Below are positions 2,644 to 52,853 of a stretch of 64,000 nucleotides of DNA, in pieces. Positions within the stretch are counted from its first letter, which is position 1; the number at the start of each line of letters is the position of its first letter. The translations under genes were made by a program, and so were the position numbers. The stretch lies in assembly GCA_034780895.1 (NCBI GenBank), contig JAUZTB010000033.1, positions 26,713,051 through 26,777,050 on the forward strand. Direction: 5' to 3'. The notes beneath the pieces are model-generated. The model searched no databases, was not told where the DNA came from, and saw only the letters and a list, made by a program, of their open reading frames with translations. This DNA is from Rhynchobatus australiae (taxonomy: Eukaryota).

Positions 2644-4377
2644 GTGATTTTTATAAATGACTTGGATGAGGAAGTGGAAGAGTGGGTTGGTAAGTTTGCA
2701 GATGACACAAAAGTTGGTGGTGTAGTAGATAGTGAAGGAAGTTGTCATAGGTTGCAATGGGATTTAGACAGGATACAGAGCTGGGCAGAGAAGTGGCAGA
2801 TGGAGTTCAATCTGGAGAAGTGTGAAGTGATACACTNNNNNNNNNNNNNNNNNNNNNNNNNNNNNNNNNNNNNNNNNNNNNNNNNNNNNNNNNNNNNNNN
2901 NNNNNNNNNNNNNNNNNNNNNNNNNNNNNNNNNNNNNNNNNNNNNNNNNNNNNNNNNNNNNNNNNNNNNNNNNNNNNNNNNNNNNNNNNNNNNNNNNNNN
3001 NNNNNNNNNNNNNNNNNNNNNNNNNNNNNNNNNNNNNNNNNNNNNNNNNNNNNNNNNNNNNNNNNNNNNNNNNNNNNNNNNNNNNNNNNNNNNNNNNNNN
3101 NNNNNNNNNNNNNNNNNNNNNNNNNNNNNNNNNNNNNNNNNNNNNNNNNNNNNNNNNNNNNNNNNNNNNNNNNNNNNNNNNNNNNNNNNNNNNNNNNNNN
3201 NNNNNNNNNNNNNNNNNNNNNNNNNNNNNNNNNNNNNNNNNNNNNNNNNNNNNNNNNNNNNNNNNNNNNNNNNNNNNNNNNNNNNNNNNNNNNNNNNNNN
3301 NNNNNNNNNNNNNNNNNNNNNNNNNNNNNNNNNNNNNNNNNNNNNNNNNNNNNNNNNNNNNNNNNNNNNNNNNNNNNNNNNNNNNNNNNNNNNNNNNNNN
3401 NNNNNNNNNNNNNNNNNNNNNNNNNNNNNNNNNNNNNNNNNNNNNNNNNNNNNNNNNNNNNNNNNNNNNNNNNNNNNNNNNNNNNNNNNNNNNNNNNNNN
3501 NNNNNNNNNNNNNNNNNNNNNNNNNNNNNNNNNNNNNNNNNNNNNNNNNNNNNNNNNNNNNNNNNNNNNNNNNNNCAGATGGAGTTCAATCTGGAGAAGT
3601 GTGAAGTGATACACTTTGGAAGAATGAACTTGAAGGCAGAGTACATGGTTAAGGTAGGATTCTTAGCAGTGTGGGGTCCAAGTACAACGATCCCTCAAAG
3701 TTGCTGCACAAGTAAATAGGGTAGTTAAGAAGGCGTATGGTATGCCGGCCTTCATTAGCTGGGGGATTGAGTTCAAGAGCTGAGAGGTAATATTACAGCT
3801 CTATAAGACTCTAGTTAGACCACACTTAAGAGTACTGTGTTCCATTTCTGGTCACCACATTAAAGGAAGCACATGGAAGCTTTGGAGAGGGTGCAGAGGA
3901 GATTTACAAGGATGTTACCTGGGTTGGAGAGAATGTCTTATGAGGAGAGGCTGAGAGATTTAGGGCTTTTCTCTTTGGAACGACAGAGGATGAGAGGAGA
4001 TGATAGAGGTTTATAAGATTATGAGAGGCATACACAGAGTGGACAGCCAGCATCTTTTCCTCAAGGTGGCAATGGCCAGTACTAGAGGTTACTCATTTAA
4101 GGTGTGTGGAGGAAAGTTCAGGGGAAATGTCCGAGGTAGGTTTTATTTTACACAGAGAGTGGGGGTGCCTGGAATGCACTGCCAGGGGTGGTGGTAGAGG
4201 CCTATACGATTGGGTCATTTAAGAGACTATAATGGATAGGCACATGGACGAAAGAAAAATAAAGGGTTATGGGAGGTGAAAAAGAGTGGAGCATGGATTG
4301 AACGGGGATAAGGCTTATATAGGTCGGCACAACGTTGTGGGCTGAAGGGCCCGTACTGTGCTGTACTGTTCTATGTA
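2644..4377 (+). mobile_element. CR1/HER1-type LINE 3' portion (RT and tail), spanning an N gap
   Basis: IFINDLD...KFADDTK...WAEKWQMEFN.EKCEV; MIEVYKIMRG; 3' tail GGGCTGAAGGGCC...GTGCTGTACTGTTCTATG. Confidence 0.9.
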
Positions 4378-4792: not shown

Positions 4793-5317
4793 TAGTTCAG
4801 GTATCGCCCTGGTTGAAATGGACTGCTAATGCGCGAACACATACGTTTAATTCTTAAATGTTTAGTAATTTATTACATTACTTCACCTTCATAGGGCGAC
4901 GGGTGGTTCTGTTAGGGTAGCGGGTCGAGGTGTCATCTTGGAAAAAGTAGAGAAAACGCTGTTTACTCCTGCAGCCTGTCTCTCTGTTCAGACTGTTCAG
5001 GACCCGCCCTTACTCTGCTCTGATTGGCTAAAACTGCAACTCTGGTTCTTTTTATTGGTTGAAAGCAGCATCAGTCAAATCCAGCCGGATAGAAGTCCCC
5101 GAAACACACGTTTTTTTCTCCTCCTCACCTTTAGTAAATCCGCAGCGGAGACGAAGAACTTAAATCCGTTCTGCCTGACAAAATTCAAGACCCTTGAGTG
5201 ACGTTTTCAAGACTAACTTCCACATTATTCATAAATTCAATACTTTTCAAGGCCCTTAATTTTGCAAAAATGAGTATAAGACTTTTCAAGACTTTTCAAG
5301 ACCCCGCGGACACCCTG
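4793..5317. mobile_element. End of a DNA transposon (hAT-like CAGGG terminus with subterminal repeats)
   Basis: The minus strand starts CAGGGTGTCCGCGGGGTCTTGAAAAGTCTTGAAAAGTCTT. TTCAAGAC-type units at 5184, 5204, 5236, 5244, 5283 and 5293. CpG-rich. The other end is missing (gap 4693-4792). Confidence 0.6.
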
Positions 5318-6092
5318 TTTTAGCTTAACCATATCTGCTTTTGCTACCTTTAGCTAGTCTTTTGCTTCTCTTTGCTGAGTGTTTTGCTACTTTGAGTTCT
5401 AGCAAGCCTTGTTCTTTTAGCTTCTAGCTGGGCTTTATTACTTGTAGTCAGCCTTTTGTCACTTTTAAGCTCTTCACAGCTTTTTGATATTTTAACTATA
5501 ACATTATGATAACATGATAACATAACTAAAGTTCATTTATTTGGCATAAATTACTCAGCCTAATTACTATGTATTCATGCACATGCCATGTCAAATACTT
5601 CTTTTAAAAGTCTACTTCTTGTTCAGAATTAATTAAAGATGCATTTATTCTACCACACTGCATTAAAATTATTTCATCCCACAGAACTGAGTCTGAGCCC
5701 TAACTTACATTTTCTCAATGTACTAAAAACAGCAAGTAATACGAAGTTCCATTGCTTTGAAGAGAGCTTAAGCATTTTAAAACAATCTTCCTAACATCAA
5801 AATAACAAGTTTTTGCTTCTGGTCTATGGAAGATTAAATCCTAAAATGTCATGTGCTTCAGCAGAGTATTCCTATTTCACAACATCTCCAGCCCAGTCTA
5901 TGGGTTGAACCTGCAGCCTGTTGACATGTAATAAAGTCAGGTGATCAAGTTCATGAAGAGTAATGAGAGATGAATCTACCAATAGCTTTGCTGGCAAATT
6001 CCTAAACAAGGAATTAGTCTGAGGGATTGTGCTACCTCTGCCTGTAAAGAGGAAAGGGCTGGGCACACAGTCAGCCATGCCAAGGGAAACCG

Positions 6093-6250
6093 GTGAGGAG
6101 TTTGTATGTTCTTCCGTGTCTGTGTGGGTTTCCTCCGGGTGGTCCGGTTTCCTCCCACATTCCAAAGACATACGGGTACGTTAACATGGGTTTAAAATGG
6201 GCGGCGTGGACTCACTGGACCAGAAGGGCCTGTTACCACGCTGTAAATAA
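6093..6250 (+). mobile_element. 5'-truncated V-SINE (HE1-like, tail type A)
   Basis: Core GGAGTTTGTATGTTCT..GTGGGTTTCCTCCGGGTG..CCGGTTTCCTCCCACA followed by a CR1-like tail. Confidence 0.85.
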
Positions 6251-16693: not shown

Positions 16694-17177
16694 CTTTAAG
16701 AAGATTCGGAGGACAAGGAAAAATAATAAAATACGTCAGGAAAAATGCATAAGAGAAAAAAGACAGTGATAACATTTCTTAGAAATTCTGATATTTCAAT
16801 GGTCAGAGGTTTGCTTTTTCATTCAAAAATCTTCCCCATTTTAGTCACACTTTTGAAAGGTGTTTTCTCTAATGCTTAATACCATGTATTATTACACTCA
16901 AGTACACTCCAAGAATAAGCAAACTCTTAATTCTTTTTGCTGCACAAGATTTACCTCAGAAATCACCCCCTCATTGATAGAGAATAAATGAAAATAATTG
17001 TATGCTGACATTTTATATGTCCAACTAATTAAACTTTTAAACTGTATAACCAAAACATAAAGCTTCCTCAGACACAAACGCATTCATACAACCACAGCCT
17101 GCCACAATACACTTTGGCCGAACTGAAAACCCAAGTAATTAATTTCACCTTTTTAGTTAAAGAATAATCATAAATTA

Positions 17178-17329
17178 GTGTAGCGATTAGCACAACACTA
17201 TTACAGCGCCAGCAATCGGGGGTCGATTCCCGTTGCTGTCTGTAAGGAGCTTGTATGTTCTCCCGTGTCTGCGTGGGTTTCCTCCGGGTGCTCCGGTTTC
17301 CTCCCACATTCTAAAGACGTGCGAGGAGG
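17178..17329 (+). mobile_element. V-SINE (HE1-like), runs into a gap
   Basis: tRNA-like head (GTAGCGATTAGC...GGTCGATTCCC) plus the V-domain core. Confidence 0.85.
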
Positions 17330-18694: not shown

Positions 18695-18725
18695 TTAAAT
18701 TATTGTGAGAAGTGGATTAATGAGG

Positions 18726-18955
18726 AGGGGCGGCACGGTAGCGTAGCGGTTAGCGCGACGCTATTACAGCACCAGCAATCGAGGTTCCATTGCCTGTAAG
18801 GAGATGTATGTTCTCCCATGTCTGCATGGGTTTCCTCCGGGTGCTCCGGTTTCCTCCCACATTCTAAAGACGTACGGGTAGGTTAACTTGGGGTTTAAAA
18901 TGGGCGATGCGGACTCGTTGGGCCGGAAGGGCCTGTTACCACGCTCTAAATAAAA
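18726..18955 (+). mobile_element. Full-length V-SINE (HE1-like)
   Basis: Head GGGGCGGCACGGTAGCGTAGCGGTTAGC, V core, tail GGGCCGGAAGGGCCTGTTACC, then an AT-rich TAAAAAT repeat. Confidence 0.9.
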
Positions 18956-37437: not shown

Positions 37438-39574
37438 NNNNNNNNNNNNNNNNNNNNNNNNNNAAACCGGATTCTGAAATACTCAGACCTCATTTGTGGG
37501 AAGAAAATGAGTTAACGTTTCAGGTGGAAGACCCTTGCTTGACCTTTGTCTCTGTTTTTCTTGCCATGGATGTGGCCTGTTTGAAGGACTTTACAGAAAA
37601 GGTGCTTAATTTGACCACCACCACAAATACGTTTTCAACCTTTACTCTTATTTATTGGCATAATTCAAACATGAAGGCTCATTAAATCCATTTTAATTTT
37701 TGTTGGGTACTTTTTTAAAAACTTTGACTTTAATTTTTAAGAATTTGTTTCAAAAAAGGTGTCACCAGTGCTTATATTCCCTGGTATGTGAATGAGGAAA
37801 GATTTATGTTAAAAGCATAAAAAGCCATACACAGCTCCAAACACTGGGTATTATAAAATCTGCTCCTTTAAGTGCAGCATACAAAGGTAAAGGTTAAGGA
37901 AGTAAATCACAGGAGGTAGAATAAGGTGGAAGGAGGCTTGTGTAGAATATAATCACTAGCAATGGCCTGATGAGTCTGTGTCAGTGATAAACCCTGCCAA
38001 TTTATAATCTTTCCATACAGTTTCCAAATCAGATTCAGGAATCCTCTCTGCTGATTCCTGACCATCATAAAGAGAGAAATAGAAAAGAAAGAGCTTCCAA
38101 TTTCAATATTTTCTTTAAAAAGAATCTGGAAGTACAACTCATTTTAAAATTTCAGTTTAACTTTAGAATGACACATTGGAATCCAGATAAAATGGTTATT
38201 TGGCTCATGACCTAATAACTGTTAACTTCACCGTTCCATGTCTGTTCAAATATCAGTTCACAGTACATTACATCAGATTACAGCATCAAATCAGTTCCCA
38301 AAAACAGTTTCCTTATGATATTTCACTCTATTTCAACCTTCATCCAAAATGAAGATGTTTTTATTTTAAATGTGTGGTATGCATTCAGCATTATCATGAG
38401 ATAGGATGTCTAAATACAATCCTCCTGGATTTTCCGGTTTTATTTTTGATTTCCAGCATCAGCAGTTTTTTTTTCCCATTTAATACAGAAGAATGCCTTA
38501 TCACCAAAATTTACAAACAAGCACCAAGACCTGGCTTGACTAGTGAGAGCGGAAACTCTCCCAGTCAAATCCTTCCTGCCCTCCAGGTGGTTGCAATGCA
38601 TGATCCATTTCATTCGGTAATGCACATTTGCCATAGAGAGATGCAGTGGTCTTTGTCCATGTTCATCCCATACAGCTGCATAACACAGGACTATGTTACA
38701 GGCATACGCTGAGACAAACATCAGCTGCTGCTGGAAGATTATCAGATCAATGATAATCTATGTATTTTGGTCCAACCAAACTTTGCTGGTCTTCCTGTGC
38801 GACAAGCTGTCCGCAACAGAAAGCTGTGGGCTGATTCATTCCAAGATGCAGGAGTGCACATCAAGGGCTGCTCTGAGGTTTGGTGCAGTCAGTGCAAAAA
38901 AACTCAATGGGGAAAGGCCACATTGAAGATCCTTCCCATCACTGCACACTGAGGGGCAAAAACATGTCCAAAAAAATCTCTTGGACTTAATCCTTGAGGA
39001 ATGTATTGAAAATCCTTGAGGAATGTATGAAAAAGAAAAATTGATGTCATGCTCGTAGGCAAATGGAATGGTACAATGAATGGTGACATGAATGTCCTGC
39101 ATTAGACAATAGCAAATTTTATGAATAAAGTATATATTNNNNNNNNNNNNNNNNNNNNNNNNNNNNNNNNNNNNNNNNNNNNNNNNNNNNNNNNNNNNNN
39201 NNNNNNNNNNNNNNNNNNNNNNNNNNNNNNNNNNNNNNAATAGCAAATTTTATGAATAAAGTATATATTTAAAAAAGGTAGTGTGCTATGTTTGAGATAA
39301 CCTGGGCCTTGGTAATGTATGTTTAGATCTGTAGGTAGATACTGTATCTAACAGAACCAATTTATCAGAGAGTAAGAATGCTTAGAATCATAGGAGGAAG
39401 GTGGTCTAAATTGGATGGTGTGCGTGATGCATCATTAACATTCACCCAAACTACCTAGTATGTTCAGTCTAGTATGTTCATTTTAATGATTTCAGTATCC
39501 AAGCCAGTGTGAGCTATGCTATTTCCCCAATCCATCAGAGAGGTACTCTGTTTGTGTGTGTGTGGGTTTGTGCC

Positions 39575-40521: not shown

Positions 40522-40743
40522 AAAATTTTATTTACAGCCCAACGAGTCCGTGCCACCCATTTTAAACCCCAAATTAACCTACCCGTACATCTTTGGAATG
40601 CGGGAGGAAACCGGAGCACCCGGAGGAAACCCACGCAGACGTGGGAGAACGTACAAACTCCTTACAGGCAGCGGTGGGAATTGAACCCGGGTCGCTGGTG
40701 CTGTAATAGCGCCATGCTAACCACTACGCTACCGTGCTGCCCC
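40522..40743 (-). mobile_element. Full-length V-SINE (HE1-like)
   Basis: Close reverse complement of 18726-18955. Confidence 0.9.
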
Positions 40744-42229
40744 TCTACTGTACCGTACGTGGATTGTTCCAATCCATGGTGTGTAATAGGGCACAAACCA
40801 TAGATGACGCAGGTAAACTTTCCCATATCCCACTTCCTCTTCATCTGCAATCTCATCTGATATACAAGTTGCAAACATAGTCATACACATCTTACATTCA
40901 TTCTCCCTTCTCATCACTCTGCTGTTATTCTTTACTCCTTTTAGATAACCAAGAACAGTTAATCCTGCTTGCAGTTGCAGAACAGGATTTGACACCCACT
41001 GTTACCAGCTCACATATATACACATCCTAGAGTCAGCATTGAAGGAGTTGCACAGGTGACTCACTGTCATGACTGCCTGTCACCTGGAAGGTAGGAAAAC
41101 AATAACCCAACTGGTAATTCTCAAGAAAGAGAGAGCATGTGAGGAACTCAGATGCAGCTTTATGGGTAAACACAATACAATTTTGGCACATCGTTAGTCT
41201 AATGCAAAAGCCATTACAGGCCATGGATGTGTCCAGCACCAACCTTGAACAGTATTCAGCCCAGAGTCCATCCTTTCCAGGTGCAGAAATAGTTGCTCAC
41301 TACATTGCATCACAAGGGCCCAACCATTGCAGCATGTCATGCCCTATGTCTTGGTTTTAATTGCAGTGCAAGCAAAAGCCTCTAGACTTCAATAAAGGAT
41401 ACGACATCTACAGCATGTAGTTTGTCAAGCATTCAAGGAGTTTGTTACGGGATCCAGTTGTTTTTAGGCACAGGCATTCTACTTGAAGTGCAGAATGAGA
41501 AATAAATTTAAAGATTCATTTTTGGCTTTATCTTAGCACAGTCTTCCCAACACACATTCAAGAAAATGTGAAGAAACACATGTTTGCAGTTCAGGTCATG
41601 AAGAACTATCCCTTGATTATGGTACACGAATAGATATCAGACACTATCAAATAAAACAATTCTGTAACAGGCATTTTAAAAATAGAACAACACAGTCGTG
41701 TTTTAAGTAATAGAATTCCAGAGAGAAATGGGANNNNNNNNNNNNNNNNNNNNNNNNNNNNNNNNNNNNNNNNNNNNNNNNNNNNNNNNNNNNNNNNNNN
41801 NNNNNNNNNNNNNNNNNNNNNNNNNNNNNNNNNNNNNNNNNNNNNNNNNNNNNNNNNNNNNNNNNNNNNNNNNNNNNNNNNNNNNNNNNNNNNNNNNNNN
41901 NNNNNNNNNNNNNNNNNNNNNNNNNNNNNNNNNNNNNNNNNNNNNNNNNNNNNNNNNNNNNNNNNNNNNNNNNNNNNNNNNNNNNNNNNNNNNNNNNNNN
42001 NNNNNNNNNNNNNNNNNNNNNNNNNNNNNNNNNNNNNNNNNNNNNNNNNNNNNNNNNNNCCCCACAGATGCTGTTCGACCCGCTGAGTTCCTTCAGAAAA
42101 TTGTTTATCTAGAGGCATGATGGAAATAGCAATGTTATGCTCTACATAGAATTATAGTACATGATTGACTGAATATGGTAATACTATGAAGACCTTGATA
42201 GAATGGACTCGTATGTTTCTTGATGCAAA

Positions 42230-49401: not shown

Positions 49402-49500
49402 CTATTTTGTATACAATATTTGTTGACAATATGCAGTCATCATCATCCATTTCCTCTGCTGTAGAATTAGTTACTAACTTTTTGGATATAAATATGTTAC
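49402..49500 (-). CDS. WEE1: WEE1 coding exon 7
   Basis: SNIFISKKLVTNSTAEEMDDDDCILSTNIVYKI; TTTTTAG| acceptor, |GTAAG donor; 99 nt. Confidence 0.95.
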
Positions 49501-50057
49501 CTAAAAATAAGAGGACCAACAGCAGTTAGGAACAGGCATTGAACTTTAATATTACAGAAATAAACATTACTGTGGGAGTTCTGTACATATAGTCACAATT
49601 GATTTTCCAAGTTAGGAGTTTTTGAAACTCATTTGTTGAAAAAAATAAGGGCAGAAGCCCCCAAATTTAATCTCTGGTCTACTGGATGCTTTCATCTGGG
49701 GCATTATAATTAGCATCAGCACCCTTCAATAGGTTTGACTGGCACTAAGAAAGGGGAAAAAAATTCATAATTATTGAACATGTGTATCAAATGACTTTAG
49801 ATAGAATATAATTTGATAACCTTATTAAGATCATTTGAAATATCAAACAATTAATGAACAGCAAATCTGAGTGAGATTCTGAAAAGCAAAAAACTGTACT
49901 CCAAGCTTTGAGGTGAAATGAAATGAAAAACATTAGTACCACACTCAAATGTTACCAGTTTAAAATACTGGAATGGTTTCCTGGTGCAATTTAGGGCTCA
50001 TATCTATGTTCCACAACTCAACAAGTATATAGTAAAATTTCTGTTCAAAACAAAATA

Positions 50058-50171
50058 CAGGTGCTCCCCAGGTTATGGGTAACCTTACTTAGAAATCTGA
50101 CTTCACACAAATTCTTCCATACATTTTAAAAAGCATATTTCAAGATACTAATAAGAATGTTTGGGGGACTG
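50058..50171. mobile_element. Short decayed Tigger-like MITE
   Basis: TA|CAGGTGCTCCCCAGGTTA ... TTGGGGGACTG|TA. Confidence 0.5.
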
Positions 50172-51254
50172 TATACTTAACAAATAACACCACTAAACTT
50201 CCTCCTTTCTCCTCCAGAAAAGATAATGGATTATGGGGAGTTATGGTGGGTTATTGTTTTAGTTACTGGGAACTTTCCTTTATTGGGGGGATAAGACAGT
50301 GCTGATATACTATTCAAGTGAAGGGACAGAATAACTCTCCACATTTGCTAGGCTGCACCTTAGGATTAAGAATGTCTTGCTTCCAAATGAATCTAGCCAC
50401 ACAACTTATAGCAGAATTACAAAATTAGTCATCCAAACAGATATCCATAGTTAATTCTCCATGCTCCCATTTCCCAAGCAAACGTTGGCAAACTCTTAAG
50501 ACCAACATTAATCCAAATCCTACCCAAGCCACATTGTTCAGAACATCATTAATTCTGTACTCCTGCTGTTGGTATACTTACTTCAAGCAAACAGTCACCT
50601 CAACTGATGACTGGAGCTCACAACATCATAAAACTCAAATTATACCCCAATAATAGTCATTTGCAAAGTATTGGATATCAGTCAAGAGCAAAAGCCTTAA
50701 TGGCAACATACAAATACAGCATGACAAATCAATTCCTTAACCATGAAATAAATAACAGTACTTTTTTTTCCAGTAAATATTTCAGTCCAATTTAATGCAT
50801 ACGTAAAACAAAGTTATGCATTGATAAATGAATACTTCCAACAAGATCAAGTGAAAATATATTTAGATTACTGGGAATCTTTTGAAACAGGAATTTACAC
50901 ATGGTCTGTATAGGTAGTTATGCCGATTTAGTGTTGTGATGTAACCAACTATCTTGGCACAGACTTGAGTGCTCATAAGCATTCTACTAACATGCTCATT
51001 TTCTCTGGATTCAACTGGAACACATCTCTATAGTGACAGCACACACACCATAGCAGATGAAAATTTGTATTTTACTAGATTTCTCAGTGTCTTTGGAGAT
51101 TCAAGCATACCAACAAATGACACTTAAACAATTTTTTTTAATGTAATATGTGCTNNNNNNNNNNNNNNNNNNNNNNNNNNNNNNNNNNNNNNNNNNNNNN
51201 NNNNNNNNNNNNNNNNNNNNNNNNNNNNNNNNNNNNNNNNNNNNNNNNNNNNNN

Positions 51255-52410
51255 GAGGCTCCTATGAATATCCAGTCATTCTCCCTAACGGTTCCACAAC
51301 ATGGCTGCTGAAGCTGCACCCATTTTCAGATATGTTGCTCACATAAGGCCAGCTAAATAGATATAACAATGCTGCAAACGACTGAGCATAAAAGTAGACC
51401 AAATTGGCACTAAGTTTACTGGAGAATAACAATCAACACCTTGTAATGAAGACCGAGTCATTCGGGACAGCGATACGAAAAGTACACAGTCTACTGTCAG
51501 ATATAATTGTCAATGCTTTTCCATCCTTCACTGCACTCTCCGTAACTTCACAGCGCACTTTATGGATCTCAGGAAATAGTTCTCCAAGAATTTAATTTTA
51601 AAATTGCAATGAAACCAGATGTTAACCACGAATTTATAACTTAAATTGGCAACCCGTGTCTGCCTAGGAGTTACATTAATCACCGATCGGATACACCAGT
51701 AAAATTTGGCACTCGACAGGTTTGCATTGGGCTTTCTATCTAGTTCACTGGTTTCGTAGATTTAACCCTCTACTTTCTGCGAAAAGACTCACTCTATACG
51801 ACAAATACAAACGGCACCAGATCGTCATATCTAAAATTGATGAGTAATGCAGTTTCTATTATATGTAGACTTTCCTTTTGGAACATGGTGTTTAATCCTG
51901 AATTCAGAATGTACACATGCATATTTGACAGTAGAAGTAAATGTTTTGGATCAGCTTCCTGATGTAATGGAATGTTACCCTGTGTTCAGAGATATGTGTA
52001 CACAGAAATACAAATTCTGTGTGTGTGACTCTGTTCACACACCACACGAGAGGAATGCAATAGATAATCATAACGTTTAGAGAATTGAAACAGCCACAAT
52101 TCCAACATGTTCGCAATTATTTCATTGCAGGGATCGATGAAGTCAAAAGAAACCGAAGTAAGTACTTTAAAATACTTCAGATGACCAAGAGAAAAATGGG
52201 TATCGTTTTTATGCTGCCGGTACCAGGCGCAACAATCAAATATATATAGAGGGAGAACGATTGGGATTGGGTTTTGATGTCTGTCAGTCAGTCAGAAGTA
52301 CTGGAATAGAAAATTGCGCAGGCTGCCTGTTTGCTATTCATCAGTTGGAAGGTCATCGTCTATATTTATGATTTGATCTTCTGTTGATTAGCTTCATGAA
52401 CATCGTAATA
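51255..52410. other. Compositionally anomalous block of unknown origin (CpG-undepleted, AT-rich) in WEE1 intron 6
   Basis: About 30 CpG in 1.15 kb versus about 3 in the 1.65 kb to its left, at roughly 38-40% GC. No recognisable repeat or protein. Starts right after a 100-N gap. Confidence 0.75.
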
Positions 52411-52706
52411 AATGTCATTTTGAAATTAACAGTAAGGAAATGCTCTTCCCTCCATATATTCCTGATGCACAAGGTATTGCTGCACCAGGGGCTGATATAA
52501 TAAGTCTGTAAAATGGAGATTTCTAAGGATATAGAGCTTAATATAAATGAAAATACACACTGAACATTGTTAACCTGTACCCCAGTTCAACATAGAGACT
52601 ACAGTGAAAAATTCTATTAAAAATTGTATTCAAGTATAATAAGTTAATTGTAGATACAAACTTTAAAAGGGTAAGCATTAAAAACATAATGGATCTACAC
52701 ACTTAC

Positions 52707-52853
52707 TTGGCTTTATATCCATGTGCACAAGGGACATACTGTGAATGTACTTTAGACCCCGTGCAACCTGTAGTAGCAGGTCCCTCAGCTCTGGCTCACT
52801 AAAATATCGTCTATTCCTGTAATTTTCTGCTATTGCATCTGATAGGCTTCCAC
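52707..52853 (-). CDS. WEE1: WEE1 coding exon 6 (catalytic loop)
   Basis: GGSLSDAIAENYR...GLKYIHSMSLVHMDIKP; AAG| acceptor, |GTAAGT donor; 147 nt. Confidence 0.97.

Follow-up and report, generated by a model that had tools for sequence, protein, structure and literature searches.

The CpG-rich block that the assembly places inside an intron of WEE1 is, with high confidence, not a real feature of that gene. It is host DNA from C81, another sequence of the same assembly (G000), most likely joined by the assembler to the WEE1 intron at a word of 21 bases that the two places share. Three findings speak for this reading, about which we have little doubt: the junction is crossed by no contig of the three public runs, both of its sides have reproducible other continuations, and the home of the block has a hole. 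For the annotation of WEE1 this means that the block is to be taken out of the intron and put on C81. It is also a warning for the use of this assembly: gap-free joins can be chimeric, so that a jump in composition within a contig should be backed by reads before a foreign origin is claimed. The surroundings of the block's home, a domain of 550 kb on C81, are a by-product of more weight than the finding on WEE1 itself.

The window, i.e. the whole stretch of 64,000 nucleotides that was analysed, carries exons on either side of the block that match consecutive stretches of Wee1-like kinase (PDB), in agreement with the gene context proposed in a preliminary description of this DNA, and the intron is therefore placed at 49501-52706 on the minus strand. 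Limits of this intron and of the exons were set by splice sites read from the sequence. The exon numbers 6 (52707-52853) and 7 (49402-49500) are presumably those of the human gene. The features that matter for the argument are the following.

49402..49500, minus strand: next WEE1 exon, 99 nt, from kinase match and splice sites
49501..51154, minus strand: 3' part that truly belongs to the WEE1 intron, CpG observed/expected (o/e) 0.06
51155..51254, no strand: scaffold gap of 100 N
51255..52460, no strand: very probably displaced block, single-copy host DNA, composition score equal to the median of the C81 domain
52461..52481, no strand: 21-base word that the true WEE1 intron has in common with the locus of the block, probable point of the misjoin
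52482..52706, minus strand: true 5' part of the WEE1 intron, free of CpG, covered by an X3 contig (52461-54001) that runs across exons
52707..52853, minus strand: WEE1 kinase-domain exon, 147 nt, from kinase match and splice sites

The compositional contrast that drew attention to the block is real. Positions 51255-52410 contain 30 CpGs in 1,156 bases at 38.7% GC, which gives an o/e of 0.69 and bears out the earlier figures of about 30 CpGs and roughly 0.7 in AT-rich DNA. Equally accurate were the about three CpGs given for the intron at 49501-51154 (3 in 1,654 bases, o/e 0.06) and the lack of CpG from about 52410 to exon 6, as none occurs between 52404 and 52760, the latter position being already inside that exon. 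Since the median across the window is 8 CpGs per 1,156 bases (Poisson p = 2e-9), the excess in the block is not due to chance. The low background of the window can be understood from pervasive methylation of a cartilaginous-fish genome, as reported for the elephant shark in somatic tissue only (PMC5437953).

As to its content, the block has no match to any repeat of the window in a window-wide comparison, as had been stated before, occurs once in G000 and contains no tandem array; it was thus rejected as a member of a repeat family. Its ends show no convincing terminal repeats, and the target duplication that had been proposed as a check on insertion was not convincingly present either. The earlier impression that there is no convincing open reading frame was upheld by Pfam at the curated cut-off, which gave no family for any of the 15 ORFs or for the 6 read-through frames; with only sub-threshold scores, a coding remnant was rejected. 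An RNA gene was likewise rejected because Rfam had no match anywhere in the window, and the phage and plasmid collections yielded no match to the block. Among the public runs listed as containing the block there is none of RNA, which has no bearing on whether it is expressed.

That the block is host DNA follows from its distribution and depth. It is present in three public runs from three studies, two of organism A (X1 and X2) and one of organism B (X3), where the block contigs have depths of 5.9, 2.7 and 6, respectively. The unique flanking contigs among those listed have depths of 3-8.1 in X1, 2-2.6 in X2, so that the block lies marginally above the range in that run, and 5.5-7.4 in X3. The depth is thus that of a single host copy and is not doubled, and the aberrant depth that might have betrayed an artefact was not seen. 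A contaminant would hardly follow host depth in two organisms. While X1 has no substitutions relative to the block, organism B has one contig of 2,791 letters that spans 51255-52431 and continues 1,639 letters leftward, with 51 substitutions over 1,152 letters and 31 gap letters. In this organism the block is joined to C81-type sequence, so the absence in relatives that was expected of foreign DNA is not what is found. Substitutions and small gaps of organism B are clustered at 51975-52030 and 51385-51435 of the window; the former cluster coincides with a short inverted repeat and could have arisen by a micro-inversion.

The junction was examined by aligning 10 contig pieces of the three public runs to 51060-52530, with at least 31 letters required on both sides. 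None of the ten bridges 52461-52481, and four depart from the window sequence exactly there. The contigs on the block side traverse the 21-base word and then proceed into other letters, on which X1 (with 11 letters) and X2 (with 377) agree; those on the exon side carry the word preceded by other letters, on which X1 (with 192) and X3 (with 11) agree. X1 and X2 accordingly have loose ends after 52481, and X1 and X3 have them before 52461. Two different molecules share the word, which has one copy in G000; the sequence written in the window takes its left half from one of them and its right half from the other. The continuity of the block with exon 6 that had been described thus holds for the assembly, which is gap-free at this place, but not for the public runs, none of whose contigs spans the junction. 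About 1.1 million chance pairs of shared 21-mers are expected in 2.23 Gb with uniform base use. A Markov score that contrasts a C81-domain model with a window model puts the change point at 52425, fewer than 40 bases away from the join.

Both true continuations of the block lead away from WEE1. To the right it continues into an unplaced contig of the same assembly, C55820, which has 757 bases and a CpG o/e of 0.88, and whose first 12 letters are those of window 52470-52481. To the left, the 30 letters preceding the block in organism B have a single place in G000, C81:6810098-6810127 on the minus strand (29/30), next to a gap of 1,208 N (6808885-6810092), and the 5 letters between this match and the gap are the first 5 letters of the block; the link to C81 on this side consists of 30 letters of one organism-B contig and a 5-letter overlap. 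The left neighbour of the block is thus G000:C81:6810093 onward, on the opposite strand. Block and 21-mer occur once in G000, so that the use of the block at WEE1 accounts for its absence from C81. Two points speak against a perfect fit: block and C55820 together need 1,967 letters, more than the 1,208 N, whose number must therefore be an estimate, and the far end of C55820 does not overlap the sequence at the left gap edge. The composition of this region (C81 6.78-6.84 Mb, CpG o/e 0.67, GC 39.5%) is like that of the block, and the Markov score of the block, +16.9, is close to the median of +17 for 269 tiles of the domain, whereas it is negative in 39 of 41 window tiles, the tiles of domain and window both being scored in-sample. 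The CpG level of the block therefore needs no cause at WEE1, as it equals that of its home. About 3 kb from the home gap, inside the domain, lies a lone PRY-SPRY exon (L007:5622-6191, minus strand), which has 29% identity to another SPRY exon on C81.

On the WEE1 side, the flanks of the 100-N gap extend in organism B into unlike letters (209 and 1,639 letters), and the sequences that truly adjoin the two pieces of the WEE1 intron have no match in G000. Part of the real intron is unassembled in G000. The idea of a CpG island within the 100-N gap, with the block as its shoulder, was rejected on the basis of the crossed continuations and the match to C81.

The events that led to this situation can be envisaged as follows. 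An assembler that used words of 21 bases at low depth would have fused two paths, the chimeric contig would then have been placed via its WEE1 part behind a pad of 100 N, and a hole, which is observed, would have been left behind on C81. We infer the graph word size of 21 bases from the shared word. That contigs may fuse sequence of different chromosomes is a well-known problem of assembly, as described in the available text of the RaGOO paper (PMC6816165), and the present case resembles the interchromosomal chimeras of reference-ordered assemblies treated there in that one contig with parts from two scaffolds is placed whole with padding gaps. The RaGOO chimera check discards alignments below 10 kb (PMC6816165), so a piece of 1.2 kb would escape it.

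The fact that the join is gap-free in the assembly would suit a genuine rearrangement present in the assembled animal alone, by which 1.2 kb of the C81 domain was copied or moved via a microhomology of 21 bases, and public-run contigs lose rare alleles and possibly come from other animals than the assembled one. We nevertheless regard such a rearrangement as very unlikely: X1, identical to the block in sequence, displays just the two other continuations, G000 has a single copy of the block and a gap where C81 should contain it, the depth is not doubled, and the orphan contig C55820 begins inside the 21-mer. The CpG o/e of 0.69 in AT-rich DNA and the lack of host repeats in the block itself could suggest DNA of a parasite, microbe or virus, either contaminating or recently inserted, foreign-looking DNA having been the headline of the preliminary description. 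This has become extremely improbable. Host-level depth is seen in all three runs, from two organisms and 3 studies, organism B has an orthologue that differs by 51 substitutions, and the home domain contains host repeats, with a CpG-rich unique part in 49 of its 51 N-free repeat-bearing pieces. Searches of the phage and plasmid collections, Pfam and G000 revealed no non-host homology, no mobile-element genes and no other copies, and the depth that is host-like and shared across samples argues against a contaminant.

Scarcely credible, too, is that the block is an unmethylated regulatory island that truly resides in the WEE1 intron and that the assembly collapsed an insertion between two direct repeats of 21 bases. 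Loose ends to the left and right of the 21-mer would likewise result from a collapsed direct repeat, and fish are known to have AT-rich unmethylated islands, according to the accessible part of PMC3583005. Against this stand the left neighbour of the block in organism B, which is on C81 and not on C33, the letters following 51154, which are unlike those preceding 51255, and the CpG-rich character of both continuations of the block, which resemble C81 (o/e 0.88 in C55820) while the WEE1 intron on both sides does not. The earlier suggestion of a regulatory island of WEE1 is hence abandoned. Taken together, single-copy host depth, the orthologue in organism B and the crossed continuations imply that the block is not foreign, not a contaminant and not an island of WEE1; of the four options offered at the outset, the artefact joined into the contig is the one that agrees with the crossed continuations and the hole on C81.

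With the block returned to C81, its composition becomes a property of a much larger region. All 55 bins of 10 kb in C81:6,310,001-6,860,000 (550 kb) have a CpG o/e of 0.60-0.81 at 35.5-41.9% GC, whereas the bins directly outside have 0.35 and 0.19. An o/e of at least 0.5 is found in 160 of the 162 N-free pieces of at least 1 kb, and among 809 tiles of 500 bases only 1.6% have less than 0.3, as compared to 72% of 111 tiles in the window, where the tile median is 0.20. The right edge of the domain lies inside one N-free piece (6858130-6860250), although the joins of this assembly need care, and 17% of the domain consists of N. With the same library, the repeat content is 4.8% as compared to 22.5% in outside samples, and 93.5% of the domain is without internal repeats. 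The domain is host DNA, since 49 of the 51 repeat-bearing pieces have a CpG-rich unique part; in 29 repeat-bearing pieces a host repeat lies at least 200 bases from both ends.

Genes are nearly absent from what could be scanned. Pfam found one SPRY exon and three LINE fragments in 230 of the 238 long ORFs, a scan that covered long ORFs in the assembled bases. No tRNA was detected in 57 bins of domain and flanks, no Rfam family in 15 bins that were scanned out of the 55 of the domain, and by tblastn no second SPRY, receptor or histone gene. There was no excess of histone stem-loops, recombination signals or B-boxes in the domain. The gap edges share no sequence, the largest group comprising 3 of 436 flanks. 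An excess of ORFs over shuffled sequence was set aside because the shuffle did not keep dinucleotides.

The contrast in CpG between homologous repeat copies suggests that low germline methylation goes with position in the C81 domain. In 89 paired repeat segments, 678 CpGs were counted inside the domain and 508 in the homologous copies outside, with the inside copy higher in 54 pairs, lower in 20 and tied in 15 (p = 2e-5), but this comparison has no control for age and younger copies inside could yield the same signal. The CpG-to-TpG/CpA asymmetry in the pairs was 260 to 183 (p = 3e-4), with 204 to 237 for GpC and 149 to 132 for outside-outside pairs as controls. For the block itself, 15 of 18 CpGs are kept between the two species, and CpG transitions amount to 2/40 against 9/614 (p = 0.14), a small sample in which 40 of the 51 substitutions are visible and two indel clusters are left out. 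The notion that this DNA escaped decay in a methylated germline is likely to be correct for the 550-kb domain on C81, to which it should be transferred, and does not apply to WEE1. Long-standing low germline methylation of the domain would explain why CpG decays slowly there.

Comparison with described systems gives partial likenesses. Zebrafish non-methylated islands combine a high CpG o/e with the GC content of their surroundings, and broad non-methylated islands are gene-sized and lie over genes for transcription factors and developmental genes, according to the available parts of Long et al. (PMC3583005). The C81 domain is like the former in having a high CpG o/e at background GC and unlike the latter in being 550 kb long and uniform, with no gene of these kinds in the 230 of 238 long ORFs. 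In apes, hypomethylated extension domains at centromeres are described, in the portion of the source at hand, as large, non-satellite regions of low germline methylation and CpG-rich sequence (PMC13308097). The C81 domain resembles them in size, CpG richness and a probable position effect on homologous copies, but the ape domains lie beside satellites and contain many recent duplications (PMC13308097), whereas 93.5% of the C81 domain is free of internal repeats. No satellite is seen at the C81 domain, though the assembly would miss satellites. The accessible text on the elephant shark mentions no half-megabase unmethylated domain, in contrast to our reading of C81 (PMC5437953), and neither does that of the skate genome paper, which has methylomes (PMC10115646). 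In the literature searched, mostly without subscription journals, no such domain was described for sharks or rays, which is weak evidence of novelty.

We tentatively propose, with somewhat less than even confidence, that rays have AT-rich domains of half a megabase, with sharp boundaries, few repeats and almost no genes, that have long been unmethylated in the germline and form an undescribed compartment. Such domains would far exceed broad islands in size and would appear to be tied neither to developmental genes nor to visible satellites. They may mark, for example, giant germline small-RNA loci or non-coding loci. If this is true, vertebrate genome-wide methylation would have an unusual exception in a uniform stretch of 550 kb that escapes CpG decay and is rich in neither GC nor genes.

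Other parts of C81 show related compositions. Besides one in the domain, 5 of 20 samples of 10 kb on C81 have an o/e of 0.58-0.69, namely L014 (2.30 Mb), L018 (5.10 Mb), L026 (10.70 Mb), L027 (11.40 Mb) and L030 (13.40 Mb); those at 2.3, 10.7 and 11.4 Mb resemble the domain, and L026 is AT-rich with an ORF for a 7-transmembrane receptor. Genes or ORFs for BTB, GoLoco, histone H2B-like and SPRY proteins are present on C81 at L012:1240-2223, L021:6203-7030, L018:1642-2019 and L013:1449-1787. The BTB and GoLoco genes may correspond to ZBTB12 and GPSM3, which they resemble and which belong to class III of the MHC. Three zinc-knuckle exons, which we take to be RBM4-like, flank the domain at 6.00, 6.86 and 6.90 Mb (L032:1343-2110, L044:4763-5338 and L045:2821-3294).

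Within the window, exact copies astride N gaps (2797-2836 and 3576-3615; 39108-39138 and 39239-39269) are probably untrimmed contig overlaps. One short repeat, with copies 82-92% alike at 6090-6250, 17176-17329, 18725-18953 and 40537-40745, accounts for most of the small CpG-rich patches, and its family also occurs in the C81 domain. A further CpG-rich patch, at 4793-5500 after a gap, has 9 diverged matches elsewhere in G000 (70-90%) and is therefore a repeat rather than a second unique block.
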